Assembly (NCBI GenBank): GCA_963844945.1 | Contig: CAWJQZ010000002.1 | Span: 2,123-66,122, forward strand | Length of the DNA: 64,000 nt | Direction: 5' to 3' | From: an uncultured Chloroflexia bacterium | GTDB lineage: Bacteria; Chloroflexota; Limnocylindria; Limnocylindrales; CSP1-4 | In this document: positions 6,039 to 26,883 of the stretch, piece by piece | Layout: each line of letters begins with the position of its first letter | Position numbering within the stretch: position 1 is the stretch's first letter | Program-made: the position numbers and the translations under genes | The notes under the pieces: model-generated | Told to the model about the DNA's origin: nothing | Databases searched by the model: none | Seen by the model: the letters and a program-made list of their open reading frames with translations, nothing else

Positions 6039-6087
6039 CGCGCGCGCGGTCGCATCGACCGGCAGCGACGGACGTGGACGGAGGCCG

Positions 6088-6672
6088 ATGATGGAGCTGC
6101 GGACGGACCGCGTGGGCGTGCTGCTCGACCAGCTGCGCGGAGTCGCGCGACCTCTACGTCCCCGCCTGGAGGGGATGACGGCCGCCGAGTACCTCTGGGA
6201 GCCGTTCGAGGGGATGCACTCCCTCCGGCGGCGCGGGACGGCGCCCACGCCGAACGCCTTCGGGCCGGGCGAGTGGCATGATGGACTTCGACGATTGGCT
6301 CGACCCCTTCGCGCCGGGGCCGGTCGCGACGATCGCGTGGCGGATCGCGCACGTGGCGAACGGGATCGCCGGCCGGTGGGAGTGGTCGTTCGGCACGCGG
6401 TCGATCGACCCGAACGACGTGGTGGCCTTCTCCGCGGACCCGGCGGTGGCGGTGGCCGGGCTGTCGGCGCTGGTGGACCGCTGGGCGGCCTCGTGCGAGA
6501 CGCTGACGGACGCGCAGCTCGACGTGCCCGGCTTCAGCGCCTACCCGTACGGGATGGACCCGACATCCCGTTCATCGGGGTCATGTGGTGGACGAACCGC
6601 GAGTTCATCAACCACATGGCGGAGGTCGCGCTGCTGCGGGACCTCTACCCGCGGATGGTCGACCGGGGCTGA
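6088..6672 (+). pseudogene. DinB-family (YfiT/DinB_2-like) protein with two frameshifts
   Basis: GGAGG RBS then ATGATG at 6088. MELRTDRVGVLLDQL...AEYLWEP... is in frame 1, MDFDDWLDPFAPGPVATIAWRIAHV... is in frame 2 (6278-6560), and the tail DIPFIGVMWWTNREFINHMAEVALLRDL is back in frame 1. Confidence 0.6.
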
Positions 6673-6787
6673 ACTGCGGGCCGGGGACACGGTCCGGCAG
6701 TCCCTTCCCACCGTCCGGGAGGTCGGCGGGGCTGCGATCCCGCTCGTCGGACGAAGCGGAGCGGCACGGCGACACGCCGTCGCCGGA

Positions 6788-7916
6788 TCAGCGGCCGAAC
6801 CAGCGCGCGACCCGGGTGGTGCCGAACGCCTCCTTCTCGAGGCCGCGCTCGTCGGTCGGCTTCGAGAACGACCCGAACGGCGGCTGGCCATGCGGGAACG
6901 TCACGTCGATCCCGGCGACCTGGCCGTGGCCGAACTCCATGTAGCACGTGCCGCGGCCGTCGTACGTCGCATCGGAGGACCGACTCCGGACCTGCGCCAC
7001 GATGCGCTCGGCCACGATCCTCGCCTGGCCCTCCGAGAACACGCCGGCCTTCGGCGTGCCGACGCTCGTGACGTCGCCGACGGCGTACACGTCCGGGAAG
7101 CGCGTCTGGAGCGTGTCGAAGTCGACCGGGATCCATCCGCCCTCGGCCAGCCCGGACTCGGCGACGACCGCCGGCACCCGGTGGGGCGGGATCCCGAGGA
7201 ACAGGTCGTACGGCATCTCGGCGCCGCCGGAGAGATGCGCGACGCGCCGGTCCGGATCGAGGGACCGCACGAGGTTGTCGGGCACGAACGAGATCCCGCG
7301 CTCGGCGAAGGCGGCGAGGATCGCCGCCGAGCCGTCGGGCGACGGCGGGATGGGGACGCCGAACGGCATGACCTGGGTGATCGTGCTGCGCTCGCGGATC
7401 CCGCGGCGCGCGAGGAGGTCGTGCATGAGGAGCGACGTCTCGCTCGGCGCGGGCGGGCACTTGAAGGGCGTCGAGGTGACGCCGACGACCACGTTCCCGC
7501 CCTCGAACCGCTCGAGGATGTCGCGCAGCGCCGTGGCCCCGGCGACCGAGTAGAACTCGTGGCCTCCCTCGACGAGCCCGGGGATCGCGGCGGGGTCGTA
7601 CTCCGCACCGAGGGCGACGACGAGGACGTCCGCGCCGAACGTCCCGGCGTCGGTCACGACGGTCTTCTCGACAGGATCGATCGACAGGACCTCGCCCCTG
7701 ACGAACCGGACGCCCGGGTGCACGAGGTCGGCGTACCGGTGGAGCGCCGAGGCGGGGGCGAGCCGCCCGAACATGATGTCGAGCTTCGAGAAGCCGAAGA
7801 CGAAGCCCTCCGCACGGTCGATCAGGACCGTGTCGGCCTGCATCGCCGAGCTCCTGCGAGAGGATGGACGTGAGCTCGAGCCCGCCGAAGCCGGCTCCAA
7901 GGACGACGGTGCGCAT
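6788..7916 (-). pseudogene. FAD/NAD(P)-dependent oxidoreductase, sulfide:quinone reductase-like, frameshifted
   Basis: Rossmann start MRTVVLGAGFGGLEL (from 7916) is in one frame. The rest (ADTVLIDRAEGF...TSTPFKCPPAPSE...VYAVGDV...) is in the frame of ORF 6788..9478. The junction needs 1 nt removed at ~7838-7846. Confidence 0.7.
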
Positions 7917-7986
7917 GGGCGGAAGATACGGGCGGCGTCAAGGGACGGCGGGGACGGGCCGAGCCCCGGCGCCCCCGCCCCTGCCC

Positions 7987-9705
7987 CTACTCGTCGAGCA
8001 TCGGGATCCGGACGCCGCGCTCCCTCGCCACCTCGATCGCCCGCGCGTAGCCGGCGTCCGCGTGCCGGATGACGCCCATCCCGGGGTCGGTCGTCAGGAC
8101 GCGCGACAGCTTCTCCGCCGCGAGGTCGGTGCCATCGGCGACGACGACCATCCCCGCATGCTGGCTGTACCCGATCCCCGTGCCGCCGCCGTGGTGGATC
8201 GAGATCCAGCTCGCGCCCGCCGACGTGTTCACGAGGGCGTTGAGGAGCGGCCAGTCCGCGACCGCGTCGGTGCCGTCCGCCATCGCCTCGGTCTCGCGGT
8301 TGGGCGAGGCGACGGAGCCCGAATCGAGGTGGTCGCGCCCGATGACGATCGGCGCCTTCACCTGCCCGGTCCGGACCAGCTCGTTGAAGACGAGCCCCGC
8401 CTTCGACCGCTCGCCGTACCCGAGCCAGCAGATGCGCGACGGGAGCCCCTGGAACGGGACCTTCTCCTCGGCCATCCGAAGCCACCGGTGGAGGTGCTCC
8501 TTCTCGGGGAAGAGCTCGATGAGCGCGTCGTCGGTCCGCTTGATGTCGGCGGGGTCGCCGGAGAGCGCCACCCATCGGAACGGGCCGGAGCCCTCGCAGA
8601 AGAGCGGGCGGATGAACGCGGGGACGAAGCCGGGGAAGTCGAAGGCGTTCTCCACCCCCGCCTCCTTCGCCTGCGCCCGGATGTTGTTCCCGTAGTCGAA
8701 GACGACCGATCCGGCGGCCTGCATGGCGAGCATGGCGCGGACCTGGTCGGCCATCGACTGCATGGCCCGGCGGATGTAGACGTCCGGGCGGCTGGCCCGG
8801 AGGGCGACGGCATCGTGCAGCGACATCTCCGACGGGACGTAGCCGTTGAGGGCGTCGTGCGCGGAGGTCTGGTCGGTGACGACGTCGAAGCGCTCGCCCT
8901 TCGCCGCCCAGGCCGGCTCGATCTCCGCGGCGTTCCCGATGAGCGCGATGGACATGGCCTCGCCGCGGGCGGCCGCGAGGCGCGCGAGCGCGAGGGCGGC
9001 GTCCGGCGAGTCGGTCACCTGGTCCACGTAGCCGATCTCGTGGCGGCGGCGCGCCCGGGCCTCGTCCACCTCGATGCAGATCGCGACGCCCTCGTTCATC
9101 GTCACGGAGAGGGGCTGGGCGCCGCCCATCCCGCCGAGGCCGGCGGTGAGGACGACACGCCCTTTCAGCGTCCCGCCGAAGTGCTGCCGCGCGCACTCCC
9201 CGAACGTCTCGTACGTCCCCTGGAGGATCCCCTGGGTCCCGATGTAGATCCAGGAGCCCGCGGTCATCTGGCCGTACATCATCAGGCCCGCACGCTCGAG
9301 CTCGCGGAAGTGCTCCCAGTTCGCCCACTTCCCCACGAGGTTCGAGTTGGCGATGAGGACGCGCGGTGCCCAGACGTTGGTCCGGAAGACGCCGACCGGC
9401 TTGCCCGACTGGACGAGGAGCGTCTCGTCGTCGTCGAGGCGGCGGAGCTCGCGGACGATCGCGTCGAACGCCTCCCACGAGCGCGCCGCGCGGCCGGTCC
9501 CGCCGTAGACCACGAGGCGGTCCGGGTCCTCGGCGACCTCGGGGTCCAGGTTGTTCATGAGCATCCGCAGGACCGCTTCCTGCTGCCAGCCGCGGCAGGA
9601 GATCTCCGTGCCGCGCGGCGCGCGGACGGGGCGGGCGCCGGGGAGGGGCGCGGGACGGTCGGGGGCGGGCTCACCGGAGGAGGTGGCGCGAGGGTCGGAG
9701 GTCAT
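7987..9705 (-). CDS. hutU: urocanate hydratase
   Basis: 572-aa ORF with [22 protein letters not shown] and the [18 protein letters not shown] site. Full-length urocanase-like. Confidence 0.95.
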
Positions 9706-9813
9706 CGGGGGTCCTCCAGGGCCGTGGCCGCAGGGGCCGTGGGCGCGTCGTGGCGTGGGGTCCTCGCCATCGTATCGGCGCGCGACGACGTCGGCGAGCC
9801 GGCCGCGCCCCGC

Positions 9814-10665
9814 CTACTCCGTGTACCAGTTCCTGCGCGCGTACCCCAGGCGGAAGCCGGTCCTGACCATGTTCCGGTACGAGTGGTTGACGGGCTCGCG
9901 CTCGGTCTCCTCCCCCGTCTCCGTGACGGCGAGGCGGCAGCCCGCGTCGCGGGCGTCGAGGAGTCGCCGGAGGAGCAACGCCGTCTGCCACCCGCGCCCC
10001 CGGGCCTGCTCGAGCGTCGCGCCGTATCCCATCCAGGCCACGCCGTCCTCGATGTGCATCGCCGCGGTGGCGACCGGCGTTCCGCCGTCGTATCCGAGGT
10101 AGTGCGACCAGCCGGGCCGGCCGATCTGCGTCGTCGCGATCGGCCCGACCTGCGGCGGCATCTGGAACCCGGCGAGGCAGACGTCGCCCCACGTCCCGGC
10201 GAGCGACGGATCGACCAGCTCGATGCGGAGCGCGGCCGGCGGCTCGTCGATCGCGACGAGGTCGTGCCACATCTTCACCCAGCGGCTGCCGAGGCGATAC
10301 CCCTCGGCGGAGACCCAGCCGGGCAGGTCCGACGGCCGCGCGCCATGCGCCACGTGGATCGCGGTAGAGGTCAGACCGAGGGCGCGATAGAAGCCGACCG
10401 TCTCGGCGACGTCGTCGAAGGTCGCCTCCTCGACGATCCCGAGGCCCACGGTCCGGTTGAAGAAGCTGAAGTCGAGCGCGGTGAGCCCGAATGCCACGGC
10501 GCCGCCGATCAGGCGCACGTGCGCGCCCGCAGGGTTCCCCGGGAGCTCGGCCGCCGCGCTGTACGCATCGTGGTACGCGCGGGCCTCCGCCATCTCCAGC
10601 GCGCGCGCCACCTCCGGGTCGAGGTCGAGGGGAAGCGGCTGGACTGGCTCGAACTCCTCGGTCAT
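9814..10665 (-). CDS. GNAT-family N-acetyltransferase
   Basis: Start ATG 10663-10665 follows GGAGGG. 283 aa with a C-terminal acetyl-CoA motif-like LEQARGRGWQTALLLRRL. The longer track ORF (to 11055) is rejected as upstream read-through. Confidence 0.65.
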   Translation of the reverse strand: MTEEFEPVQPLPLDLDPEVARALEMAEARAYHDAYSAAAELPGNPAGAHVRLIGGAVAFGLTALDFSFFNRTVGLGIVEEATFDDVAETVGFYRALGLTSTAIHVAHGARPSDLPGWVSAEGYRLGSRWVKMWHDLVAIDEPPAALRIELVDPSLAGTWGDVCLAGFQMPPQVGPIATTQIGRPGWSHYLGYDGGTPVATAAMHIEDGVAWMGYGATLEQARGRGWQTALLLRRLLDARDAGCRLAVTETGEETEREPVNHSYRNMVRTGFRLGYARRNWYTE

Positions 10666-10852
10666 CGGGGGCCCTCCACGGACGCTGTGACCGCACCCGG
10701 GTCGCGCGGACGTCCGTCGGATGCTGACACAGTGCCCGAGCCGCGCACACCCCCCGATGGCGCCTCCGCTGCGGCTCCCTCCCGCTACGATGAGGGCGGC
10801 TCGGCGTCGCCACGGACGTCGATGTGCCCTCGTCCCGAGGCAGGAACCTCCC

Positions 10853-12376
10853 ATGACCATCGTCCTCGACGGCACGTCGCTCACCCTCGAGAAGCTCGCC
10901 GCGGTCGCGCGCGACGGGGAGCGCGTGGAGCTGGATCCGGGCGCGCTCTCCCGCATCGCCGCCAACCGCGCGATGCTCGAGGAGAAGATCGCCGCCCACG
11001 AGATCATGTACGGCATCAACACGGGGATCGGCGAGTTCTCCGAGGTGGTGCTCACCGACGAGCAGGTCGCGCAGTTCCAGCGCTACCTCATCTACAACCA
11101 CGCGGCGGGCATCGGCGACCCCGCGCCCATCCCCACGGTCCGTGCCGCCATGACCGGCCGGATCAACGTCCAGGCGCACGGCAACTCGGGCTGCCGGCCG
11201 GTCATCACGCAGACGCTCGTCGAGATGCTCAACCGGGGCGTCACGCCGGTGGTCTGCCAGCGCGGGTCGGTCGGCGCGTCCGGCGACCTCGCGCCGATGG
11301 CGCAGGTCGCACTCCTCCTCATGGGCGAGGGCGAGGCCTGGTACCAGGGCGAGCGCCTGCACGGCGCCGAGGCGCTCCGGCGCGCGGGCATCACGCCCCC
11401 CGGCCTGGAGGCGCGCGACGGACTCTCGACGATCAACGGGTCCAACGTCCTCACCGCCATGAGCGCGCTCTCGCTCTGGGACATCGAGCGCCTGCTCAAG
11501 CAGGCCGAGATCGCCGCGGCGATGACGCTGGAGGCCCTCCTCGCGAACCTCAAGCCGTACGACACCCGGCTCCACCAGATGCGCGGCTTCCCGGGCGCGG
11601 TCCGCTCGGCGAAGGCGATCATGCAGATGCTCGAGGGCTCCGACCTGCGGACCGGGAAGATCCACACGAAGGTCCAGGACGCCTACTCGATGCGCTCCAC
11701 CCCGCAGGTGATCGGGGCCGCGCACGACGCGGTCGCGTGGGCGCGCAAGCAGGTCGAGACGGAGCTCAACGGGGTCGGGGACAACCCGATCTTCCTGACC
11801 GAGGAGAAGCTCACGCTCACCGGCGCGAACTTCCAGGGGACGCCGGTCGCGCTCCCGATGGACATGGTCGGCGCCGCCGTGACGACCGTCTGCGTCCTCT
11901 CCGAGCGCCGGCTCAACCGCCTGACGAACCCCGCCCTCTCGGTCGGCCTCCCCGCGTTCCTCACGAAGGGCGCCGGGATGTTCTCCGGGATGATGCTCAG
12001 CCAGTACACCGCCGACACGCTCATCGTGGAGCAGAAGCTCCTCTCCGCCCCGGCGTCGATCCAGTCGATCCCGGCCGCCGCGGACCAGGAGGACTTCGTC
12101 TCGATGGGGATGAACACGGCGATCAAGACCGAGCAGATCGTGGCGAACGGGTACGGCGTGATCGGCATCGAGATGATGGCGGCCGCCCAGGCGCTCGACT
12201 TCCGCGAGATGACCAGGGGCAAGGGCACGGACGCCGCGCACGCGGTGATCCGGCGCCACGTGGAGCACCTCGACACCGACCGGCCGCTCCACGTCGACCA
12301 CACCCGGATGCAGGAGCTCGTGAAGTCGCGCGAGGTCCTCGACGCGGTGGAGGCGGCGGTCGGGTCGCTCGGATAG
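10853..12376 (+). CDS. hutH: histidine ammonia-lyase
   Basis: MTIVLDGTSLTLEKLAAV..., MIO-forming triad in GSVGASGDLAPMA, 507 aa, in the hut neighbourhood. Confidence 0.9.
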   Translation: MTIVLDGTSLTLEKLAAVARDGERVELDPGALSRIAANRAMLEEKIAAHEIMYGINTGIGEFSEVVLTDEQVAQFQRYLIYNHAAGIGDPAPIPTVRAAMTGRINVQAHGNSGCRPVITQTLVEMLNRGVTPVVCQRGSVGASGDLAPMAQVALLLMGEGEAWYQGERLHGAEALRRAGITPPGLEARDGLSTINGSNVLTAMSALSLWDIERLLKQAEIAAAMTLEALLANLKPYDTRLHQMRGFPGAVRSAKAIMQMLEGSDLRTGKIHTKVQDAYSMRSTPQVIGAAHDAVAWARKQVETELNGVGDNPIFLTEEKLTLTGANFQGTPVALPMDMVGAAVTTVCVLSERRLNRLTNPALSVGLPAFLTKGAGMFSGMMLSQYTADTLIVEQKLLSAPASIQSIPAAADQEDFVSMGMNTAIKTEQIVANGYGVIGIEMMAAAQALDFREMTRGKGTDAAHAVIRRHVEHLDTDRPLHVDHTRMQELVKSREVLDAVEAAVGSLG

Positions 12377-12999: not shown

Positions 13000-13681
13000 T
13001 CAGTTGAGGCCGCCGACCTGGATCGCGATGAGGCTGTTGTCGTCGAGGACGGGGCCGTTGCTCGTGAACGCCGTCGAGCAGGCCACGGAGACGGTCGTGG
13101 TGCCCGAGAGCGTCGTCGTGGCCACCAGCGCATAGGGCGACCGCTGCGCGGCGTAGTTCGACGCGTCGATGTCCTGCGTGGCGCTCGCCCCGGGGGCGTT
13201 GATGGTGCACGTGGCGGAGTTGTTGATACCGAAGCGGTACTTCATCTGCCCGGCGGCCTGGAGGACGTAGGTCCCGGCCGGCAGCGTCAGGCTCGTGACG
13301 GTCGTCGGGAAGACGCTCACGCCGGCGACCACGGTGACGCTGGTGCTCGTCGTGGACCACGCGTGGGCCGCGCCCGCCGCTCCGGTGGGTCCGATCGGGC
13401 CGGTGTCGCCGGTGGGGCCGGCCGGCCCCTGGATCCCCTGCGCGGCCGGTCGGTCCGGCGGGCCCGGTCGGGCCGGACGTGTTGAACCCGACGAGCTGGC
13501 CGCCGCCGGCGAGCTTGCACTGCGGGATCGTCGCCATCGCGACGGCGCCGCTCGTGTTGAAGCATGCGTAGAGCGTGGGCGGGTTGCTCCCGGCGACGAC
13601 CGAGCCGGCCGCGACGGCGACGAGCACGAACGCCGCGGCGCCGACGATGGGAGCCCGGATGCGCAGGTGGGACGCAGACAT
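13000..13681 (-). pseudogene. secreted collagen-like protein, paralog 1 (head class C), 1-nt frameshift
   Basis: AAGGAG RBS. MSASHLRIRAPIVGAAAFVLVAVAAG signal, NPPTLYACFNTSGAVAMATIPQCKLAGGGQLV module, then Gly-X-Y repeats broken by one extra nt at ~13444-13447. Removing it gives 12 perfect triplets. The C-terminal head ends NSLIAIQVGGLN. Confidence 0.7.
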
Positions 13682-13702: not shown

Positions 13703-13767
13703 GCGTCCCGCATCCACCGGCGGGACGCGATCCGCTGACTGTCGTCCCGTCGCGGGGGACGCGTCAA
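13703..13767 (-). promoter_or_regulatory. paralog-1 leader: TTGACG -35-like hexamer plus CGTCCCGC/GCGGGACG palindrome
   Basis: Minus-sense TTGACG (13762-13767), then 32 nt, then a 9-bp-arm inverted repeat (13703-13728). The repeat ends 21 nt before the ATG codon (13679-13681). Confidence 0.45.
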
Positions 13768-18122: not shown

Positions 18123-18776
18123 ATGAAGGACCCGATGAACGAGTACCGCGGGATGCGGGTCACCGTCGCGGACGGCGTCGCCGAGGTCGCGCGGGTCACG
18201 CGCGAGGCCGAGGTGAAGGTGTCGATCTCGCGCGGCGCGCGGCGGGAGCCGGACCTCGCCACCGGCCTCGCGTTCTTCGATCACATGCTCGAGATGATCG
18301 CGTGGCACGCCGGCCTCAACCTCGACGTGACCTTCGCGAAGAAGACCTACGCGCTCCGGCACGTCGTCACCGAGGACATCGGGATGGCGTTCGGCCTGGG
18401 GATCAACGCGCTCCTGCGCGAGGCGATGGCGGCGGGCGTGGAGGGGGCGGCGGCGGCGTCGATGGCGATGGACGAGGCGTTCGCGACCGCGGCGCTCTCG
18501 TTCGAGGGGCGCTCCATGCACTTCATCGACCGCGACTCGCCCGGCTCGCAGCTCGAGTGGGTCGAGGACATGCTCGGCGCGGACATGGTCGCCTTCTACG
18601 AGGGCTTCGCCCAGGGTGCGCGCTGCACGCTCCGCCTCCGGGTGAGCGAGGGGAAGGACCCGCACCACAGCTGGGAGGCCGCCGCGCGGGCGTTCGCCGT
18701 GGCGCTGCGGCACTGCTTCGACCCGATGCCGTTCCGCGCCGGACTCACGGCAGGCGTGAAGGGGACGCTCGACTGA
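18123..18776 (+). CDS. imidazoleglycerol-phosphate dehydratase family protein (divergent)
   Basis: IGPD motifs are recognisable: LAFFDHMLEMIAWHAG, HVVTEDIGMAFG, DPHHSWEAAARAFAVAL. The first DxHH-type motif reads LRHVV here. Confidence 0.65.
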   Translation: MKDPMNEYRGMRVTVADGVAEVARVTREAEVKVSISRGARREPDLATGLAFFDHMLEMIAWHAGLNLDVTFAKKTYALRHVVTEDIGMAFGLGINALLREAMAAGVEGAAAASMAMDEAFATAALSFEGRSMHFIDRDSPGSQLEWVEDMLGADMVAFYEGFAQGARCTLRLRVSEGKDPHHSWEAAARAFAVALRHCFDPMPFRAGLTAGVKGTLD

Positions 18777-19675
18777 TGTCGGACTGGGACGAGCTTCGGG
18801 AGGACGGCCCGGGGACGGGCGCAGGCTCCAGGGCGGGAGAGGACGCCGGCGCGCCGGGATGGCCGGCCGGCCGCGGAGCGGCCGCCGGGGCGCGGTTCGT
18901 CGGGAAGACGGCGCTGATCACCGGCGGGTCGTCGGGGATCGGCCTCGCGACGGCCACGCGGCTCGTCGCCGAGGGCGCGTCGGTCGTCATCCTCGCGCGC
19001 GACCAGGGGCGGATCGGCGAGGCCGTGCTCGCGCTGCGAGAGGTCGCGGCCGTCACCGGCGAGCTGCTCGGCATCGACCCGCCGCGCGTCGAGGGCGCGT
19101 CCGTGGACGTCATGGACGAGGACGGCGTCCGCCTGGCCGCCGACGCGGCCGCGAAGCTCGGCGACCGACTGGACATCTGCATCGCCTCGGCGGGGATGGA
19201 CGGCGCCGCGGACGACGCGCTCGAGATCCCGGTCGAGGAGTTCCGCAAGGTCCTCGAGGTGAACGTGCTGGGGCTCTTCATCGCGGCACGGGCCGCCGCC
19301 GAGCGGATGGCGCTCGACCGGCTGGGCGGCGCGATCGTCCTCGTCGCGAGCGTCAACGGCCTGATCGCCGAGCCCGAGTTCGCCGACTACAACACGAGCA
19401 AGGGCGGCGCGGTGATGCTCGCGAAGTCGCTCGCGAAGGACTGGGCGGGCAGGGGGATCCGCGTCAACGCGATCTGCCCGGGCTACGTGGACACGCCGAT
19501 GACCGCGGCATACCTCGCCGACCCGCCGACCGCGGCGACCATCGTGGGGCGGATCCCGATGGGCCGCGTGGCGGACCCTTCGGAGATCGCCGCGGCGATC
19601 GCCTTCCTCGCCTCGGACGACGCGAGCTACGTCACCGGGACGGCGATGATCGTGGACGGGGGCTGGACGGCGTAG
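18776..19675 (+). CDS. short-chain dehydrogenase/reductase
   Basis: TGATG overlap with the previous stop. TGGSSGIG cofactor motif and YNTSK catalytic motif. The N-terminal 40 aa are low complexity, so the start is uncertain. Confidence 0.8.
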   Translation: MSDWDELREDGPGTGAGSRAGEDAGAPGWPAGRGAAAGARFVGKTALITGGSSGIGLATATRLVAEGASVVILARDQGRIGEAVLALREVAAVTGELLGIDPPRVEGASVDVMDEDGVRLAADAAAKLGDRLDICIASAGMDGAADDALEIPVEEFRKVLEVNVLGLFIAARAAAERMALDRLGGAIVLVASVNGLIAEPEFADYNTSKGGAVMLAKSLAKDWAGRGIRVNAICPGYVDTPMTAAYLADPPTAATIVGRIPMGRVADPSEIAAAIAFLASDDASYVTGTAMIVDGGWTA

Positions 19676-19681
19676 AGACGA

Positions 19682-19708
19682 GGGGGCCGCGCCCGCGGCG
19701 CGGCCCCC
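19682..19708. terminator. bidirectional hairpin terminator candidate
   Basis: Perfect 11-bp arms GGGGGCCGCGC / GCGCGGCCCCC with a 5-nt loop, 7 nt after the SDR stop. Confidence 0.55.
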
Positions 19709-19711
19709 TGC

Positions 19712-20351
19712 TGTGTCGGCTGGCACGTACGGCCGCCGTACGGCGCGGCTCGAGTCGCGCAGGCGGCCGCGGACCTCGACCCGTTCGACGGGAAGTGCCG
19801 CGGTCGTCCACGCTGCTGTGGTCCACGACCGACGGAGCCGCTGCCGTCGAGCGTCGGCGCGGAGGCCGTAGATGCCGCTCCCTCGGACAGCAGCCGGTTG
19901 CCCGTGTCCACGTGACGACCGCGCCTCCGCCGATGCGCCTGTGGTGCCGTCGGGCAGTTCGGACGCCGCCGTCGCACTGGATCCCGGACGTCGTGTGGGT
20001 CGAACCAGACCTCGCGATGATGTCTGGCCGACGGTGTAGCACGTTCACGATGTTCGTCGCCGAACCGGGCCGGCCGGTCCCGTCGACCCCGGTCGCGCCG
20101 GTGGCCGTGCCCTGTGGCGCCGGTGGGCCCGGGGACGCCCTGCGTGCTCCAGTAGGCGAGCTGGCCGCCGCCGGCGAGCTTGCACTGCGGGACGGTCGCC
20201 ATCGCGACCTGGCCCGCTCGTGTTGAAGCAGGCGTAGAGCGGTGGGCGGGTCCGTGGACGCGGCGAGCGTGCCGCCCGCGGCGACGGCGACGAGGGCGAA
20301 GGCGGCGATGCCGACGGCGAGCGCGCGGGGACGGGGATGGGACGCGGGCAT
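19712..20351 (-). pseudogene. secreted collagen-like protein, paralog 2 (head class A), multiply frameshifted
   Basis: MPASHPRPRALAVGIAAFALVAVAAGGTLAAS is in one frame, LYACFNTSG in a second, and QVAMATVPQCKLAGGGQLAYWSTQGVPGPTGATG in a third. Head fragments (SATNIVNV, IQCDGGV...IGGGAVVT, LDGSGSV) are scattered over frames. No clean stop before the terminator, so the 3' end is approximate. Confidence 0.6.
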
Positions 20352-20373
20352 CGGATGCCTCCCCTCGATGCGG

Positions 20374-20436
20374 GCGTCCCGCCGCAGGGGCGGGACGCGA
20401 TGCGCGCGAGGATGCGCGGCAGACCGGGTACGTCAA
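20374..20436 (-). promoter_or_regulatory. paralog-2 leader: TTGACG plus perfect 10-bp palindrome
   Basis: Minus-sense TTGACG (20431-20436), then 31 nt, then GCGTCCCGCC-CCTGC-GGCGGGACGC (20374-20398). The palindrome ends 22 nt before the ATG codon (20349-20351). Confidence 0.45.
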
Positions 20437-20486
20437 TGGAGAACGTGCGGTCCGGCTGTGCCCGCCAGCGCTCGTGCGGTCGGCCG

Positions 20487-21062
20487 TCAGGGCGTGACGC
20501 TCGCGCACACCGCCCACCCGCTGACCGACAGGTTCTCCCCGGCGACCAGCCCGCTGCCGTCCGCCTTCCCGGCGACCAGGTTCCAGTGGCCCGAGCTCGG
20601 GTAGCTGGAGAGCACCGCGCCATCGGCCGCGGACCCGAAGATCGTCACGTGCGCGCCGCCGCCGAGAGGCTGCTTCCCGCTCGGACATGCGACGGCCATG
20701 GCGTACGAGCGAGTGCCGACGATGTTGGTGCCGCCGTTCCCGTTCACCTGCTCGTACCCTGCGACCGACCCGCTCACCCCGGTCGGGCCCTGGGGGCCGG
20801 TCGGACCGACGGATCCGGTGGCGCCGGTGGGTCCGGTCGGGCCTGGGACGGGTGCCGTCCCCCAGTAGACCAGGCGCCCGCCGCCCGCGAGCTTGCAGGT
20901 GTTCAGGTCGCTCATCGCCACCTGTCCGCTCGTGTTGAAGCAGGCGTAGAGCGTCGGCGGGTTCGTCGAAGCGGCGAGCGTGCCGCCGGCCGCGACGGAG
21001 ACCAGGGCGAACGCGCCGATGCCGATCGCGATGGCGCGTGCGCGCGGACGGACGTTGACCAT
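20487..21062 (-). CDS. secreted collagen-like protein, paralog 3 (head class A)
   Basis: Intact 191 aa: signal MVNVRPRARAIAIGIGAFALVSVAAGGTLAAS, module NPPTLYACFNTSGQVAMSDLNTCKLAGGGRLV, 9 Gly-X-Y triplets, and a head with CPSGKQPLGGG...GHWNLVAGKADGSG...SGWAVC. Confidence 0.75.
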   Translation of the reverse strand: MVNVRPRARAIAIGIGAFALVSVAAGGTLAASTNPPTLYACFNTSGQVAMSDLNTCKLAGGGRLVYWGTAPVPGPTGPTGATGSVGPTGPQGPTGVSGSVAGYEQVNGNGGTNIVGTRSYAMAVACPSGKQPLGGGAHVTIFGSAADGAVLSSYPSSGHWNLVAGKADGSGLVAGENLSVSGWAVCASVTP

Positions 21063-21085
21063 GGCGTTCCCACCCGATGCGTCGA

Positions 21086-21162
21086 TCCCGCGTCACGGGC
21101 GGGACGATGCCGAGGACCGTAGCCTGCGGCTGCCGACGCCGGCATCGGGTGATTCCCTCGAT
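21086..21162 (-). promoter_or_regulatory. paralog-3 leader: palindrome plus 26-nt box shared with paralog 5
   Basis: TCCCGC/GCGGGA 6-bp arms at 21086-21104. Box CGCCGGCATCGGGTGATTCCCTCGAT at 21137-21162, identical to 22746-22771. Confidence 0.45.
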
Positions 21163-21250
21163 GTCATCGGACGGGGCCCGGACGGCCGGGCGGGAAGCGA
21201 CGAGGCCGCGCATCGCGGCGCGGCCCCGTCGGAGTGGACACGTCGGCGGA

Positions 21251-21937
21251 TCAGGGGATGACGACCGCCGGGTACTCGACCTGCAGGATCACCTTGCCCG
21301 TGACGCTCGGCTTCGGGACGGAGGCGGTGCCGCACAGGGTGTCGAACGCCCGCAGCGACGAGTCGGCCGTGAGCGTCCTGGTGGACTTGGCGCCGATCGA
21401 GATGGGGACGGAGCCGGCGGGGTTGAACTGCTGGTCGAACAGGTAGTTCGAGTCGCCGGTGTCCACCTTGATGGTCGAGGACAGGCAGGTGAGGACGCCC
21501 GACCCGGAGATCGAGAGGATCTCGCCCGAGATCGGTGTCAGGCGCGTCCCCGCAGGGAAGGTCGTCGTGCTCGTGACCGGGCACGGGGTGACTCCCGCGG
21601 CGCACTCGGGGACGGTGAAGTCCCACTCGACGAGCGTCGGGGCGTACGGCGCCCCGGTCGGCCCGACCGGACCCGTCGGCCCTGCCACGCCCGTCGCGCC
21701 CTGAGGCCCGGTGGGCCCGGGGACGGGGGCGGTCCCCCAGCTCACGAGCCGGCCGCCCCCGGCGAGCTTGCAGGTGTTGACGTCGCTCAAGGCGACCTGC
21801 CCGTAGGTGTTGTAGCAGGCGTAGAGCGTCGGCGGGTTCGTGGAGGCGGCAAGGGTGCCGCCGGCGGCGACGACGACGAGCGCGAAGGCGCCCACCCCCA
21901 CGGCGAGCGCGCGGAGGCGTGAGCGGGATCTGTGCAT
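21251..21937 (-). CDS. secreted collagen-like protein, paralog 4 (head class B)
   Basis: Start taken at MHRSRSRLRALAVGVGAFALVVVAAGG (GGGAG RBS) by analogy with its paralogs. Module PPTLYACYNTYGQVALSDVNTCKLAGGGRLV, 8 Gly-X-Y triplets, and an unrelated Cys-containing head (TVPECAAGVTPCP...). Confidence 0.7.
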   Translation of the reverse strand: MHRSRSRLRALAVGVGAFALVVVAAGGTLAASTNPPTLYACYNTYGQVALSDVNTCKLAGGGRLVSWGTAPVPGPTGPQGATGVAGPTGPVGPTGAPYAPTLVEWDFTVPECAAGVTPCPVTSTTTFPAGTRLTPISGEILSISGSGVLTCLSSTIKVDTGDSNYLFDQQFNPAGSVPISIGAKSTRTLTADSSLRAFDTLCGTASVPKPSVTGKVILQVEYPAVVIP

Positions 21938-21957
21938 GAGATCTCCCGGGGACGCTG

Positions 21958-22019
21958 GATCCCACAACAGGGGCGGGACGCGGTGGGCGGACTCTGCGCG
22001 CGCGGGGGGTCGTCGTCAA
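21958..22019 (-). promoter_or_regulatory. paralog-4 leader: TTGACG plus degenerate palindrome
   Basis: Minus-sense TTGACG (22014-22019), then 31 nt, then CGCGTCCCGCC left arm. The right arm has degenerated to TGGGAT. Confidence 0.35.
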
Positions 22020-22064
22020 TGGCGGCGCCGAGCAGTGTCGCGCGCGACGGCGGCTCGGGGTCGG

Positions 22065-22670
22065 TCAGCGCGTCTTCATGCAGGAGACGCTCATGCCCCA
22101 GTGGATCGACTCGTTCGTGTTGAACGCCTGGCCGTCGAGCTTCGCGAACGTCACCCGCCATCCGCCCTCCAGCGTGTTGTCGCTGCCGACGAGGGCGGCG
22201 GCGCGGACCGGGCTGCCATTCACGTAGAGGACGGCACTTCCGCCGCCACCCGTCGGATAGGCGTTGGGGACGGACGGACAGTCGAGCGTGTGCGTGTACG
22301 TGTAGACGGTCCCTGCCTGCGCGGGAGGGCCATCCACGCCGCCGACGGTCGTGTACTCGAACGAGGCGGATCCCGCGGCACCCGTCGGACCGGTGGGACC
22401 CGTGGCGCCCGCGGAGCCCGCGGAGCCGGCCGCGCCCGTGGGCCCGGCGGGACCCGTCGGACCGACCGTGTTGAACCCGACCAGCTGGCCGCCGCCGGTG
22501 AGCTTGCACTGGGCCGTGGTGCCCATCGCCACCTGGCCATACGCGTTGAAGCACGCGTACAGCGTGGTCGGCGTGGAGGCGGCGAGCGCTCCGCCGGCGG
22601 CGACCGCGACGAGCACGAAGGCGGAGACCCCCACCGCGAGGGCGCGCAGACGGGACCACGAGACAGGCAT
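22065..22670 (-). CDS. secreted collagen-like protein, paralog 5 (head class A)
   Basis: Start at MPVSWSRLRALAVGVSAFVLVAVAAGG. Module TTLYACFNAYGQVAMGTTAQCKLTGGGQLV, 11 Gly-X-Y triplets, and a head DCPSVPNAYPTGGGG...GGWRVTFAKLDGQA...HWGMSVSC that aligns with paralog 3. Confidence 0.7.
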   Translation of the reverse strand: MPVSWSRLRALAVGVSAFVLVAVAAGGALAASTPTTLYACFNAYGQVAMGTTAQCKLTGGGQLVGFNTVGPTGPAGPTGAAGSAGSAGATGPTGPTGAAGSASFEYTTVGGVDGPPAQAGTVYTYTHTLDCPSVPNAYPTGGGGSAVLYVNGSPVRAAALVGSDNTLEGGWRVTFAKLDGQAFNTNESIHWGMSVSCMKTR

Positions 22671-22693
22671 CGAACCATCCCCTCGATGCGGTT

Positions 22694-22771
22694 GTCCCGC
22701 ATCACGGGCGGGACGACACGCAGGACGGTAGCCGGTGGATGTGCGCGCCGGCATCGGGTGATTCCCTCGAT
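22694..22771 (-). promoter_or_regulatory. paralog-5 leader: palindrome plus 26-nt box shared with paralog 3
   Basis: GTCCCGC/GCGGGAC 7-bp arms at 22694-22714. Identical 26-nt box at 22746-22771. About 100 nt aligns with the paralog-3 leader. Confidence 0.45.
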
Positions 22772-22858
22772 ATCGCCCGGCGCGGCCGGGCGGGCACCGC
22801 GCGTCGACGGGCCGGACGCCCGGCCAGGCGCCCGACCGGCGTGCTACCGTCGCCGTCG

Positions 22859-23074
22859 ATGTCCGACCCGCGACCCCGCCTTCGCACCGTCGTCGCCGCG
22901 CTCTCCCTCGCCCTTCTCGCGGCGGCCGCGCTCGCGCCCGCAGCCTTCGCCGACGTGGTGACCGGCGGAGACACGGAGGGCGGCACGCTCCTCTTCTGGC
23001 TCACCGTCATCGCGTGCGTCGGGGTCGCCGCGGGGACCGCGATCTTCTACGTCTACCGCCGGCGGCACCGCTAA
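22859..23074 (+). CDS. small signal-peptide plus C-terminal TM-anchor protein (71 aa)
   Basis: MSDPRPRLRTVVAALSLALLAAAALAPAAFA signal, a 12-aa exposed segment, the TM LLFWLTVIACVGVAAGTAIFYVY, and a basic tail RRRHR. Confidence 0.4.
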   Translation: MSDPRPRLRTVVAALSLALLAAAALAPAAFADVVTGGDTEGGTLLFWLTVIACVGVAAGTAIFYVYRRRHR

Positions 23075-23192
23075 AATCGGGGCCCCGTGCGGAGCCCGCC
23101 ATGGAGCCACCCGCGCGGCCACGCCATCGTCCCCCGAGGCCACCGCCCCGGCCCGTCGCCACATCGCTCCCGCGCCCACCCGGAGACCCGCC

Positions 23193-24521
23193 ATGCAGCT
23201 CCTCGCACTCCGCCGCTGGTCCGAGCTCGACGACGACGAGCGGCGCCGGATCCTCGCCCGTTCCAACGAGCGCGTCTTCGACCCGGCCCTGCGCGCGAGC
23301 ATCCAGGCGATCTACGACGACGTCGCGGCGCGCGGGGACATCGCCGTCAGCGAGGCGACCGCCCGCTTCGACAAGGCCGACATCCCGCCGGATCGGCTCG
23401 CCGTCACCCCCGAGGAGCTGGCCGCCGCCCACGCGTCGATCGACCCGGGGCTGCTCGACGCGATCCGCGTCGCCATCGCCAACGTCCGCGCCTTCAGCGA
23501 GGCCCAGCTCGCGGCCACCGCGTCGGGCTGGCGGGCGGAGATCGCCCCCGGCGTGGAGGTGGGCGAGAAGTTCTCGCCCATCCCGTCGGTCGGACTGTTC
23601 ATCCCGTGCGGGAAGGCGTCCTACCCGTCCGTCCTCTGCCAGATCGGCACCCCGGCGGTCACCGCGGGCGTGCCGGACATCGCGGTGGTCGTTCCGCCGG
23701 TCCCCGGTACCAGCGACGTGGACGTCGCGACCCTTGCCACCGCCCATGAGCTCGGCATCACGCGCGTCTATCGCGCGAACGGCCCTGCCGGCATCGCCGC
23801 GATCGCGCTCGGCACGGAGTCCATCCGGCGCGTGCGCAAGATCGTCGGCCCGGGCAGCCCCGCCGTGACGATGGCGCAGATCATCGCGCAGGGCTACGGC
23901 GTGCTCACGAGCATGATCTCGGGGCCGTCGGAGAGCGTGGTGGTCGCCGACGGGACCGCCGACCCGCACCGCGCCGCCCTGGACCTGCTGAACGAGGCGG
24001 AGCACGGCGAGGACTCGGCGGCGCTCCTGCTCACCGACTCGCTCGCGATCGCCGAGGCCGTGGACGCGGAGCTGGTGGGGATGGTGGAGCTGCTCCCGGA
24101 GCCCCGCGCGAAGGCGGCCCGGAGCGCGCTCGGCGTCTGGGGCGGCGCCTTCATCTTCGACTCGATGGCCGACGCCATCGACTTCGCGAACCTCTACGCG
24201 GTCGAGCACATCCAGCTCGCGACCGCCGACCCCGAGGCGACCCTCGACGGGCTCGAGTACGCGGGCGAGGCGCTCCTGGGCCAGCACACGACGATCAGCG
24301 AGACGAACTTCGTCATCGGCGTCCCGGCCACCCTCCCGACCGGCGGGTTCGCGCAGGTGAACGGCGGCGTGACCGCCCGGACCTTCACCGTCCCGATCGC
24401 GATCTCCAAGCTCGACGAGGCCGCCCTCCGTCGCCTCGCCGCGCCGACCCTGCGGCTCGCGGACCACGAGGGCTTCCCGGCGCACGCCAACGCGCTGCGG
24501 CTCCGGGGGCTGGGGGAGTGA
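23193..24521 (+). CDS. hisD: histidinol dehydrogenase family protein (HisD-like)
   Basis: 442 aa, full-length HisD-like: ...GPGSPAVTMAQ..., DLLNEAEHGEDS, YAVEHIQL. The region where I recall GDY..NHVLPT in canonical HisD reads SETNFVIGVPATLPT here, so it may be a paralog. Confidence 0.7.
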   Translation: MQLLALRRWSELDDDERRRILARSNERVFDPALRASIQAIYDDVAARGDIAVSEATARFDKADIPPDRLAVTPEELAAAHASIDPGLLDAIRVAIANVRAFSEAQLAATASGWRAEIAPGVEVGEKFSPIPSVGLFIPCGKASYPSVLCQIGTPAVTAGVPDIAVVVPPVPGTSDVDVATLATAHELGITRVYRANGPAGIAAIALGTESIRRVRKIVGPGSPAVTMAQIIAQGYGVLTSMISGPSESVVVADGTADPHRAALDLLNEAEHGEDSAALLLTDSLAIAEAVDAELVGMVELLPEPRAKAARSALGVWGGAFIFDSMADAIDFANLYAVEHIQLATADPEATLDGLEYAGEALLGQHTTISETNFVIGVPATLPTGGFAQVNGGVTARTFTVPIAISKLDEAALRRLAAPTLRLADHEGFPAHANALRLRGLGE

Positions 24522-25771
24522 CCTCCGGCGGCCCCGGCCGCGGATCGGACCCGAGCGCAGCCGGCGAGCAGGAGGACCTCGGCCTCGACGCGCTTCCGCC
24601 CGGTGACTCCGGCCGCGAGGCGCGCGACGACGACTCGATCCTGGGACTGGGCCCGGCGGACGCGCTCCACGGCGGCGAGGTCGTCCTCAACGTCCACGAC
24701 GTGGAGCGGATCGCCGCGCGCGTCCTCAGCCCCGGCGCTGCCGCCTACTACGACGGCGGCTCGTGGGACGAGTCCACCCTCCGCGACAACGTCGCCGCGT
24801 TCGAGCGCTGGCGGTTCCGGCCGCGCGTCCTCGTGGACGTCGCCGAGCGCGACCTGTCGGTCGAGGTCCTCGGCCGGCGCTGGTCCACGCCGTTCGGCAT
24901 CGCCCCGATGGCGCTCCAGCGGCTCGCGTGCCCCGACGGCGAGGTCGCGGCGGCGCGCGCCTGCGCCGCGCGGGACATCACGTTCACGCTGTCGACCGTC
25001 GCGAGCGCCACGATCGAGGAGGTCGCCGCCGTGGGCGGCCCGCGCTGGTTCCAGCTCTACGTGACGCCCGACACCGCGTGGACGATGTCGCTCGTCCGGC
25101 GCGCCGAGGCCGCCGGGTACGAGGCGCTCGTCATGACCGTGGACGCGGCCCCTCTCGGCCGGCGCGAGCGGGACCACCGCGTGGGCCTGGAGCTGCCGCC
25201 CGGGATCCGTTACATGAACCTGCTCGCCCGGCCCGGCGAGGACGCCACCGACGCGGACGGCCCGCGGATGTACGCGAAGGAGTTCCTCAAGGAGGCGCTC
25301 ACGCCGGCCGACCTCGCGCATCTCGTCCGCGAGTCCCGCATCCCCGTGGTCGTGAAGGGCGTCCTCCGGGGCGACGACGCGGACGCGGTGGTCGAGGCGG
25401 GCGCCGCGGCCGTCTGGGTCTCGAACCACGGCGGCCGGCAGATGGACCGGGCGGTCGCCACGATCGACGCGCTCCCGGACGTGGTGGCGGCCGTGCGCGG
25501 TCGCGTCCCCGTCCTGTTCGACAGCGGGATCCGCCGCGGGATGGACGCGCTCACGGCGCTCGCCCTCGGCGCGACCGCCGTCTTCATCGGCCGGCCGCTC
25601 CTCTGGGGCCTGGCGTGGGACGGCGAGCGAGGGGCCGGCGCGGTGCTCGACATGCTCCGCGAGGAGCTCGACCTCGCGATGGGGATCACCGGGAACACCC
25701 GGGCGTCGGCGATCGACCCATCCGTGGTCGTCCATGCCGACCGCGCACACCTGACATGGAGCGGCCGATGA
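24518..25771 (+). CDS. FMN-dependent alpha-hydroxy-acid oxidase/dehydrogenase (LldD/glycolate oxidase family)
   Basis: GTGA overlap with the hisD stop. AAYYDGGSWDESTLRDNVAAFERWRFRPRVLVDV and VSNHGGRQMD motifs. No alternative start codon before the conserved core. Confidence 0.8.
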   Translation: MTSGGPGRGSDPSAAGEQEDLGLDALPPGDSGREARDDDSILGLGPADALHGGEVVLNVHDVERIAARVLSPGAAAYYDGGSWDESTLRDNVAAFERWRFRPRVLVDVAERDLSVEVLGRRWSTPFGIAPMALQRLACPDGEVAAARACAARDITFTLSTVASATIEEVAAVGGPRWFQLYVTPDTAWTMSLVRRAEAAGYEALVMTVDAAPLGRRERDHRVGLELPPGIRYMNLLARPGEDATDADGPRMYAKEFLKEALTPADLAHLVRESRIPVVVKGVLRGDDADAVVEAGAAAVWVSNHGGRQMDRAVATIDALPDVVAAVRGRVPVLFDSGIRRGMDALTALALGATAVFIGRPLLWGLAWDGERGAGAVLDMLREELDLAMGITGNTRASAIDPSVVVHADRAHLTWSGR

Positions 25772-26883
25772 GCGACGTCGATCCCCGCCCGGCCGGCGAC
25801 GGCGGTCATGAACCGGACGCCCCGCGTCCCGTCCCGCAGCTCGCGGCGGTCGCCCCGTACGTCATGGGCAAGCCCCCCGCGAAGGAGGAGGCGCGAGGCG
25901 CGAAGCTCAGCTCCAACGAGAACCCGTTCGGCCCGTCGCCCCTCGGGATCGCCGCGGCGGTGGCCGTGCTCTCGAGCGTGAACCGCTACCCGGTCGACCA
26001 GGGCGAGCTGCGCGCGAAGATCGCCGACCACCACGCGGAGCACGCCATCACGCCGGCGAACGTCATCCCCGGGGCCGGCAGCGACGAGATCATCCACCTC
26101 GTCTGCTCGGTCTACCTCGAGCCCGGCCGGAGGCTCATCCTCGGGAGCCCGCCGTACGGGATCCACCGGATCGCGGGCCAGCTCTCCGGCGCCGAGCTGG
26201 TCCGGGTCCCGCTCGTCGACTGGGTCCACGACCTGCCCGGCATGGCCGCGGCCGCGCGCCCGGGCGACGTCATCGCGGTGACGAACCCGCACAACCCCAC
26301 CGGGACCGCCGTCCGGCCCGAGGACCTCCGCGTGCTGCTCGCGACGGTCCCTCGGTCCTGCATCGTCCTCGTGGACGAGGCGTACCACGAGTTCGTCCGC
26401 GACGACCTGCGGGTCACGGCCATCTCGATGCTCGACCTCCACCCCGGGCTCATCGTCAGCCGGACCTTCAGCAAGGCGTACGGCCTCGCGGGCCTCCGCG
26501 CCGGCTACGGCGTGGGGACACCGGCGACGCTCGAGCCGCTCGACCGGGTCCGCACGCCCGCGAACGTCAACTCGATCGCGATGGCCGCGGCGACGGCAGC
26601 GCTCGACGACCGCGACCACGTGGCGCGGACGGTGGCACTGACGCTCGAGGGGCGGCAGCGGCTGGAGGACGCGTGCGCACGGCTCGGGCTCACCTTCGTG
26701 CCCTCCCACGCGAACTTCGTCCTGATCGAGGACCGCGACGGCTGGCCCGAGGCGCTCGCGCGGGACGGCATCGCGATCCGGCCGGGGGCCAACCTGGGCG
26801 TCCCCGGGTGGCATCGGGTCACGATCGGGACGCCGGCGGAGATGGACCGCGTCATCGGGATCCTCGAGCTGCTCTTCGGCTGA
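25768..26883 (+). CDS. hisC: histidinol-phosphate aminotransferase family (class II PLP aminotransferase)
   Basis: ATGA overlap with the previous stop. LSSNENPFGPSP, NPHNPTG and SRTFSKAYGLAGLRAGYG (PLP lysine) motifs. Confidence 0.8.
   Translation: MSDVDPRPAGDGGHEPDAPRPVPQLAAVAPYVMGKPPAKEEARGAKLSSNENPFGPSPLGIAAAVAVLSSVNRYPVDQGELRAKIADHHAEHAITPANVIPGAGSDEIIHLVCSVYLEPGRRLILGSPPYGIHRIAGQLSGAELVRVPLVDWVHDLPGMAAAARPGDVIAVTNPHNPTGTAVRPEDLRVLLATVPRSCIVLVDEAYHEFVRDDLRVTAISMLDLHPGLIVSRTFSKAYGLAGLRAGYGVGTPATLEPLDRVRTPANVNSIAMAAATAALDDRDHVARTVALTLEGRQRLEDACARLGLTFVPSHANFVLIEDRDGWPEALARDGIAIRPGANLGVPGWHRVTIGTPAEMDRVIGILELLFG

Follow-up and report, generated by a model that had tools for sequence, protein, structure and literature searches.

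So far, swappable heads on collagen-like proteins have been described mostly in spore-forming Bacillota, in pathogens and in phages. In the Bcl proteins of Bacillus, a collagen-like region joins an N-terminal domain to C-terminal domains whose predicted folds differ (PMC8968730). The collagen-like proteins of Pasteuria ramosa and Thermoactinomyces are coded by 36-47 genes found in tandem same-strand groups, with presence/absence differences between isolates (PMC13233619). The present work describes a family of related design in a stretch of 64,000 nt, hereafter the window, from an uncultured Chloroflexia bacterium (GTDB lineage Chloroflexota; Limnocylindria; Limnocylindrales; CSP1-4). The window covers positions 2,123-66,122 of the forward strand of contig CAWJQZ010000002.1 (GCA_963844945.1) and has a G+C content of ~74%. 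It carries five genes whose products share an amino-terminal signal, a two-cysteine module (the N-module) and a short run of Gly-X-Y triplets, followed by carboxyl-terminal heads of unlike sequence.

The analysis establishes the architecture of these proteins, the diversity and shuffling of their heads, two head folds, a narrow taxonomic range and a genomic context that is not that of a phage. On balance, they are probably secreted, trimeric, collagen-stalked binding proteins whose heads are reshuffled by recombination at the collagen hinge. The family sequences come from metagenome assemblies throughout.

Five paralogs with a common build

A tblastn search with the N-module and the list of open reading frames (ORFs) give exactly five copies in the window, every one on the minus strand, where a preliminary description of this DNA had placed them. 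The copies and their parts are the following.

13000-13681, minus strand: solitary family copy with a class C head; +1 frameshift within the collagen run; intact ortholog, P0099, in a close relative
19712-20351, minus strand: decayed family copy with at least five frameshifts; N-module, collagen run and head start resemble P0028/P0064 (class D); 3' end uncertain
20487-21062, minus strand: intact family gene P0001, 191 aa, nine Gly-X-Y triplets, class A head of 91 aa
20967-21062, minus strand: signal peptide of P0001
20844-20966, minus strand: two-Cys N-module of P0001
20763-20843, minus strand: nine Gly-X-Y triplets of P0001
20490-20762, minus strand: class A head of P0001
21251-21937, minus strand: intact family gene P0003, 228 aa, class B head of 131 aa
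21647-21718, minus strand: eight Gly-X-Y triplets of P0003
21254-21646, minus strand: class B head of P0003, with four Cys
22065-22670, minus strand: intact family gene, 201 aa, class A head of 99 aa
22365-22463, minus strand: eleven Gly-X-Y triplets of the 22065-22670 gene
22068-22364, minus strand: class A head of the 22065-22670 gene

All five begin with an R-x-R n-region and a hydrophobic helix of ~22 residues ending in AAGG(T/A)LAAS. A Tat signal was considered and rejected because the motif is R-x-R instead of RR, and a type IV pilin signal because G/F-E is absent. The N-module that follows has ~35 aa and two cysteines, with the consensus (N)PPTLYAC(F/Y)N..GQVA(M/L)....CKL.GGG(R/Q)LV, and precedes 8-12 Gly-X-Y triplets and the head. 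This order of parts, already proposed for the array, holds in all five copies. The G+C content at third codon positions (GC3) of the copies, 0.96-0.98, is the same as that of the neighbouring genes.

The two class A heads, coded by the genes at 20487 and 22065, have the pattern CP.G...GGG ... W ... C near the C-terminus; the second of these genes has a near-identical homolog of metagenome origin, P0047. The heads of classes A, B, C and D cannot be aligned with one another (hhalign probability <20%). In this the preliminary description was right, although its count of three classes has to be raised to four: A (twice), B, C and the decayed D. It had assigned the decayed copy at 19712-20351 to class A, while a frameshift-aware alignment matches the head start GSATNIVN...IQCDGG to P0028/P0064; the alignment secures this head start alone, the remaining head being too degraded for class placement. 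The solitary copy at 13000-13681 was correctly located and recognized as having the family build, but its frameshift had been overlooked. One surplus C near position 13445 (GGCC vs GGC of the ortholog) shifts the frame within the collagen run, and its removal gives a protein of 227 aa with 12 triplets and a head of 121 aa.

Head interchange and turnover of the locus

The 122 heads compared across the family form 26 BLASTP clusters, few of which are linked by hhalign (class C to cluster 5, 95%; cluster 3 to class D, 81%; class D to cluster 7, 51%). Identity between N-modules is uncorrelated with identity between the corresponding heads (r = 0.12 across 7,381 pairs). Among the 227 pairs whose N-modules are at least 85% identical, 167 have heads less than 25% identical, some of them behind N-modules that are 100% identical. 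The converse is also found, 19 pairs having heads at least 55% identical yet N-modules less than 65% identical, and the class B head occurs on both N-module subtypes, 'FN..GQVA' and 'YD..GNVR'. At the DNA level the similarity between window paralogs (70-79% identity) starts in the 5' untranslated region (5' UTR) or the early coding region and extends only to +190/+287 nt, which is the end of the N-module or of the collagen run.

A different head at an orthologous position is found in the syntenic contig L021, whose flanks are 88-94% DNA-identical to the window. The family gene adjacent to hisD codes a cluster-3 head in L021 vs a class A head in the window, and the DNA alignment of the two runs from hisD through the N-module and ends inside the collagen run. 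The number of head clusters, the lack of correlation and this different head at an orthologous position bear out the swapped-head arrangement first proposed for the array, and the sequence comparisons strongly support the view that the heads are interchangeable on a common N-module and stalk.

In the L021 array the class B gene and a fourth copy are both frameshifted; the solitary class C gene of L021 is intact. At positions 1465-1740 (plus strand) of L021 lies a promoter-less C-terminal fragment of a cluster-4 (P0032-type) head, with neither N-module nor collagen run; it may be what a deletion left behind, or else a cassette for a spare head.

The gap between the SDR gene and hisD has no family copy in MFD00032.bin.2.129 and in Prado098 (where it spans ~0.9 kb), one copy in WY4.bin17, three to four in L021 and four in the window. 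A survey of relatives, suggested when the array was first noticed, thus gives copy numbers of 0-4 in five genomes, with differing heads. The locus turns over rapidly between close relatives. The SDR-hisD gap appears from this comparison to be a variable insertion site for family genes, as possibly does the gap between the histidine ammonia-lyase (HAL) and ABC transporter genes.

Predicted folds of the heads

The class A head of P0001 was modelled with AlphaFold2 (AF2) from an alignment of 33 sequences as a six-strand sandwich of ~90 aa, with a predicted local distance difference test score (pLDDT) of 96-98. Its top Foldseek matches in the PDB, which are weak, are the C-terminal domains of the phage tailspikes phi297 gp61 and LKA1 gp49, the AP22 tailspike, R-pyocin fibre tips and the H-type lectins HPA and SLL-2 (TM score 0.55 on the target). 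Matches in BFVD are minor tail proteins of Arthrobacter and Microbacterium phages and 'H-type lectin domain' proteins, with a best E-value of 2.8e-3.

The class C head was modelled on P0099, which is 93% identical to the repaired 13000-13681 copy, from an alignment of 10 sequences. The model has eight strands (pLDDT 83-95) and matches in the PDB the C-terminal domain of Chlamydia Pgp3 (6e-4), 4-1BB ligand, C1QL2/3, EDA-A1, CD40L, ExsF and Ena2A; the 50 best fold matches do not include BclA. The class C head is thus predicted to be a jelly roll of the TNF/C1q type, in line with the BclA/C1q-like head that had been suspected from its sequence. As modelled, the class A and class C heads really differ in fold, and are not trivially diverged versions of a single one. 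Both folds are of kinds that serve in other proteins as trimeric binding domains. Domains of the C-type lectin, fibrinogen-like and gC1q types gave no Pfam match in the 24 family proteins scanned.

Identity, size and taxonomic range of the family

Searches of the window proteins with Pfam and NCBIfam returned nothing beyond a sub-threshold match to Collagen (PF01391), for which the window copies score 18.6-20.5 bits vs a cut-off of 27.2 because their Gly-X-Y run is short. Homologs with longer runs exceed this cut-off (P0060, 34.7 bits; P0117, 40.5 bits), and runs elsewhere in the family reach 39 triplets. Profile searches against the PDB gave matches in the Gly-X-Y run only, with BclA at the top, or none. 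The N-module, which the preliminary description did not recognize as a named family, has no name in Pfam, NCBIfam or the PDB profiles either. When 20 further head classes were compared to Pfam, one was found to have a head domain, the phage tail collar domain Collar (PF07484), present in P0060, P0074, P0084 and P0088; NCBIfam and PHROGs revealed no further head domain in these classes. A full-text literature search for collagen-like proteins in Chloroflexi yielded nothing relevant.

A search of 5.8 billion proteins gives 258 family matches at E <= 1e-3, nearly all of 150-300 aa, annotated 'hypothetical' and of metagenome or metagenome-assembled genome (MAG) origin. An exhaustive phmmer search with the signal and N-module only, over 1.84 billion representatives of 50% identity clusters, gives 101 matches. 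The module stands at the N-terminus of a small protein in ~97 of them, the exceptions being two RCC1-repeat proteins, one junk repeat and one mis-called ORF. Residues 27-69 of the 20487-21062 product match RCC1 blades of P0178 and P0179 (E ~3e-5 to 5e-5), a weak multi-repeat match that sets 'LYACFNTSGQV' against 'HTCALKTNGQLFCWG'. Homology to RCC1 was rejected, the resemblance being that of a weak beta-hairpin and probably a shared pattern. Searches with the heads add few proteins: the class A head-only profile finds three more, and the class B head finds only six relatives, all of the same overall build.

In L018, from MFD00032.bin.2.129, the collagen-repeat gene at positions 6974-7159 (plus strand) has a two-Cys N-module of another kind, APTIKACVKSSG...GSCASGEKLLTWNVTGPAG. 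The gene is found 2 kb from a canonical family member, and its module resembles the variant modules of the distant proteins P0115 and P0117-P0120, a hint that 'Cys-hairpin + collagen' proteins may form a wider superfamily.

The HisD protein of the window is 89-92% identical to that of six Chloroflexota MAGs (MFD00032.bin.2.129, WY4.bin17, Prado098, all_maxbin.208, ELA019 and Kiruna_bin-01429) and ~61-66% identical to that of Ca. Limnocylindrales and other Chloroflexota MAGs. Two codon-level DNA patterns of the family were scanned over 185,579 species-representative genomes. The matches listed fall mainly in four of the six hisD-close MAGs and in Umea1p4_bin-051, whose HisD is only 65% identical; all remaining ones are chance matches without an N-module. 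Every verified match listed is a Chloroflexota MAG of one clade. Copy numbers are at least eight in Prado098 and at least five in WY4.bin17; both these counts and the taxonomic range rest on the matches listed and are to be read as minimum values. In a related assembly, five copies are dispersed among unrelated genes over a stretch of 20 kb, while some metagenome contigs have two adjoining copies ~700 nt apart; a search for related loci with a single protein gave one locus. By these sequence searches the family is undescribed and appears restricted to an uncultured Chloroflexota clade whose nearest named relative is Ca. Limnocylindrales.

Upstream elements and gene constraint

All five copies are preceded by an inverted repeat, GTCCCGC-N7/8-G(C/T)GGGA, that ends ~22-26 nt before the ATG and is followed by a Shine-Dalgarno sequence of GGAG type. 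The repeat has seven strand matches in the window vs 0.44 expected. The upstream elements are the following.

13706-13726, minus strand: inverted repeat GTCCCGC-N7/8-GCGGGA upstream of the start codon of 13000-13681
20377-20396, minus strand: inverted repeat upstream of the decayed 19712-20351 copy
20409-20436, minus strand: promoter-like site TTGAC-N17-CATCCT upstream of the decayed copy
21086-21105, minus strand: inverted repeat upstream of the 20487-21062 gene
21960-21979, minus strand: variant inverted repeat upstream of the 21251-21937 gene, GTCCCGC-N7-GTGGGA, whose stem contains a G-U pair
21991-22019, minus strand: promoter-like site TTGAC-N18-CAGAGT upstream of the 21251-21937 gene
22695-22714, minus strand: inverted repeat upstream of the 22065-22670 gene

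In other genomes, a TTGAC-N17/18-xAxxxT site is found ~60-85 nt upstream of most family members, and a stem is found at the same position with its sequence partly changed (GGCCCG/CGGGCC, TCCCGT/ACGGGA, CCCAC/GTGGG). A promoter-like site, a 5' inverted repeat and a Shine-Dalgarno sequence for each copy make each gene look like its own transcription unit; a strict scan for promoters and terminators in this 74% GC DNA gave no match. RNAalifold predicts only four pairs for the upstream stem, with little covariation, and the stem length lies ~2.4 standard deviations above that of shuffled sequences, the shuffles being mononucleotide only. The evidence for a hairpin is thus suggestive only; the inverted repeat is probably a 5'-UTR hairpin, which might act like the stabilising leaders of abundant surface-protein mRNAs.

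Constraint on the coding sequence was estimated from one class C ortholog pair, the 13000-13681 copy without its surplus C and the P0099 gene. The ratio of nonsynonymous to synonymous substitution rates (dN/dS) is 0.20 overall, 0.23 in the head and 0.16 in the signal and N-module, compared to 0.21 for the neighbouring SDR gene. This one class C pair is under purifying selection.

Genomic context

The scanned neighbours of the five copies are housekeeping genes. They code for urocanase, HAL, formiminotransferase, an amidohydrolase, an NMT1-type ABC transporter, a phosphotriesterase-family protein, IGPD, the SDR, HisD, an FMN dehydrogenase and an aminotransferase and, at a greater distance, L9, LexA and DnaB. 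Genes of phages, sporulation, sortases or secretion systems were not found among the ~40 of ~54 window gene calls scanned, which bears out, for these calls, the earlier remark that none is nearby.

Several of these neighbours belong to histidine metabolism: at 684-12376 and 18135-26883, genes of histidine utilisation (urocanase, HAL, formiminotransferase, amidohydrolase) and of histidine biosynthesis (IGPD, hisD, aminotransferase) flank the family copies. Between the array and hisD, positions 22739-23074 (plus strand) code a 111-aa ORF product with a signal-like segment, the sequence 'DVVTGGDTEGG', a C-terminal transmembrane helix and an RRRHR tail. It has a counterpart of 68% identity only in the array-bearing L021, none in L024, L025 and L028, and no Pfam match. 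Further away, a c-di-GMP-II riboswitch (RF01786) is found at 50333-50416 (plus strand; 60.7 bits, gathering score 53.5). The HD_5/HD-GYP-type gene that follows ~630 nt downstream of it, at 51049-52086 (plus strand), codes a candidate c-di-GMP phosphodiesterase. The G+C content of this region, 0.65-0.67, is below that of the rest of the window.

Proposed function and its alternatives

As collagen-stalked binding proteins, the products would be exported by a Sec-type route and probably cleaved after AAS, since this sequence fits the -3/-1 rule and distant members carry AYA, ALA or AHA at the same place. Three chains would then assemble into a trimer, the helix being nucleated by the head, by the N-module or by both, and the 8-12 Thr/Pro-rich triplets would form a triple helix of ~7-10 nm. 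With so few triplets and no hydroxyproline, flanking domains would be needed to nucleate and staple the helix; the need for trimerisation domains has been described (PMC8968730). The N-module cysteines might staple this short, marginally stable helix and, plausibly alongside or instead of this, the module might dock the trimers to a common partner or envelope layer. The threonines in the GPT-rich repeats of BclA are glycosylated (PMC8968730), and by resemblance those of the present family may possibly be as well.

The variable head would bind a ligand, in an adhesin or recognition function, and the matches of the modelled heads to lectins, phage fibre tips and TNF/C1q folds point to carbohydrate or cell-surface ligands. 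The repertoire would diversify through birth and death of copies, while new heads would come to stand on the same stalk by recombination within the 5' block that the genes have in common (5' UTR, signal, N-module and collagen run).

Several observations weigh against this explanation. Two of the five window copies and most copies of the related L021 array are frameshifted, which would reflect either a partial decay of the family or assembly and consensus errors in hypervariable regions. A run of 8-12 triplets is short for a stable triple helix, and both the trimer and the signal cleavage are inferred. The class A matches, although mutually consistent, have E-values of 0.003-0.2, none at E <= 0.001. 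The N-module appears as three short strands with pLDDT ~63-83 in one model and <52 in the other, its fold and disulfide pattern being uncertain, and the few gene neighbourhoods inspected revealed no conserved gene for a partner or an anchor.

An alternative that is unlikely but merits consideration is that the N-terminal helix stays uncleaved and tethers stalk and head to the cytoplasmic membrane as a type II anchor, as in ectodysplasin, MARCO/SR-A and collagen XIII. The hydrophobic segment is long (~21-23 residues, modelled by AF2 as a single helix of residues 7-29) and unusually conserved among paralogs, and among the matches of the class C head is the TNF domain of EDA-A1, itself a type II collagenous membrane protein. 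However, the helix ends in a conserved A-A-S or A-x-A at the position of a signal-peptidase site, a classical one in the distant members, and a 7-10 nm stalk would be too short to clear a monoderm-type wall.

A bolder extension, which we regard as improbable, sees in the family a repertoire for combinatorial recognition that would be to bacteria what collectins, ficolins and C1q are to animals, with disulfide-linked trimers, a recombination hinge and a reservoir of spare heads. The two-Cys module would link trimers, possibly of differing heads, into multivalent bundles or onto one common envelope anchor, and the shared 5' block would be a dedicated recombination hinge. By analogy with pilS/vls cassettes, the promoter-less head fragments and frameshifted copies would be spare heads. 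If so, a free-living soil bacterium would have a binding specificity that can be rapidly re-targeted.

It is very unlikely that the genes are phage-derived, coding tail fibres or receptor-binding proteins of a prophage, a tailocin or a gene-transfer particle. Actinophage minor tail proteins typically have a small C-terminal knob after their collagen repeats, the class A head resembles tailspike and pyocin fibre tips as well as phage minor tail proteins, a Collar domain ends some family members, which alone carry a true phage-type domain, and PHROG tail-fibre families do match. These PHROG matches lie almost wholly at residues 66-120, in the Gly-X-Y run. There is no other phage gene in the ~40 scanned window genes nor in L021-L023, and neither the family DNA pattern nor its protein has a match in 2.9 million IMG/VR viral contigs. 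A signal peptide, absent from virion fibres, is present in every member, and the genes have native GC3 and a promoter-like site each. A phage origin is thus refuted to a large degree.

A BclA-type hair-like nap of a spore or exosporium is scarcely credible, and sporulation is not known for this Chloroflexota group. The BclA family lacks the Sec signal found here and uses an exosporium-targeting motif; there are also no sporulation or exosporium genes among the scanned window genes, and BclA is absent from the 50 closest fold matches. These points stand against the BclA sequence match in the PDB, the best one obtained but made through the GPT-rich collagen run, against the C1q/TNF-like class C head with ExsF and Ena folds among its matches, and against the fact that Bacillus Bcl proteins likewise pair one N-terminal domain with C-terminal domains of differing folds (PMC8968730).

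Just as hard to credit is that the family is mostly non-functional, either decaying or the product of mis-assembled hypervariable DNA in metagenome bins: the frameshifts in two of five window copies, the two frameshifted copies and the mere head fragment of the L021 array and the metagenome origin of all sources would fit, but three window copies are intact and ~250 full-length homologs are known, dN/dS is 0.20 in the class C pair, conservation extends to the signal peptide, the Cys positions and the upstream elements, those flanking housekeeping genes that were checked show no interruption in these assemblies, and the class A head is predicted with a pLDDT of 96-98.

If they are indeed secreted collagen-stalked binding proteins, they would represent a clear radiation of swappable-head collagen-like proteins in an uncultured, free-living Chloroflexota lineage, marked by a new module at the N-terminus and by over 20 head families unknown to Pfam. 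They would be a natural test case of what nucleates and staples short triple helices in bacteria, and a catalogue of compact, predicted trimeric binding domains. The practical reach of these sequence-based findings is limited because the organisms are uncultured and the ligands putative. The fast turnover of the repertoire at the level of the locus in soil bacteria points to strong biotic or surface-binding selection.

Comparison with known systems

Phage fibres, actinophage minor tail proteins and T4 gp12-type Collar proteins also place a small trimeric receptor-binding knob after a Gly-X-Y run, and such knobs are exchanged between otherwise similar fibres; Collar (PF07484) is even shared with some family members. 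The family differs in having a signal peptide and in lacking the virion-attachment N-terminus, the phage context and matches in viral contigs.

Streptococcal Scl1/Scl2 and Legionella Lcl are surface or secreted collagen-like proteins in which a variable globular domain nucleates the trimer. The variable domain of Scl is N-terminal and combined with a C-terminal LPXTG anchor, whereas in the Chloroflexota proteins it is C-terminal, with neither LPXTG nor a transmembrane tail. The corresponding NCBIfam models score far below their cut-offs, with 12-18 bits vs 325-400 for the Scl models NF038329 and NF038330 and 10-18 bits, in the collagen run only, vs 500 for the Lcl model NF046116.

The defence collagens (collectins, ficolins, C1q/CTRP and adiponectin) have a signal, a short Cys-containing N-segment, a collagen stalk and a C-terminal recognition head, with lectin-like or C1q/TNF-like folds among the heads as in the bacterial family. 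The latter has no homology to their N-segment, C-type lectin or fibrinogen domains and no neck coiled coil. The analogy is one of build only and is not taken to extend to higher-order bouquets.

The closest system in build is that of the Bacillus Bcl proteins (BclA-E; BclA, PDB 1WCK), with their short N-domain, GPT-rich collagen-like region and C-terminal globular domain. The C1q/TNF-like head of BclA has its parallel in class C only. Bcl proteins start with an exosporium-targeting motif and no Sec signal, while the Chloroflexota proteins start with a basic n-region and a hydrophobic helix ending in AAS. Bcl collagen regions are far longer (27-1158 residues), their hosts are spore-forming Bacillota, the two-Cys N-module has no counterpart among them, and sequence homology is confined to the Gly-X-Y run.

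In genome dynamics the closest systems are the radiations of Pasteuria ramosa and Thermoactinomyces, which share a lineage-specific expansion, a tandem same-strand order and differences in presence/absence and duplication between close isolates (PMC13233619). They belong to another phylum, and the fixed triplet order of Pasteuria contrasts with the variable arrays and dispersed copies described here. The diversity of the Chloroflexota family is of a different kind, arising by replacement of whole heads by unrelated domains behind one conserved N-module. Membership in the BclA, Scl, Lcl and phage fibre families fails on tested defining features, for the phage fibres on the gene context, and the new elements of the family are its N-module, its phylum, its very short stalks and an unusually broad repertoire of heads.

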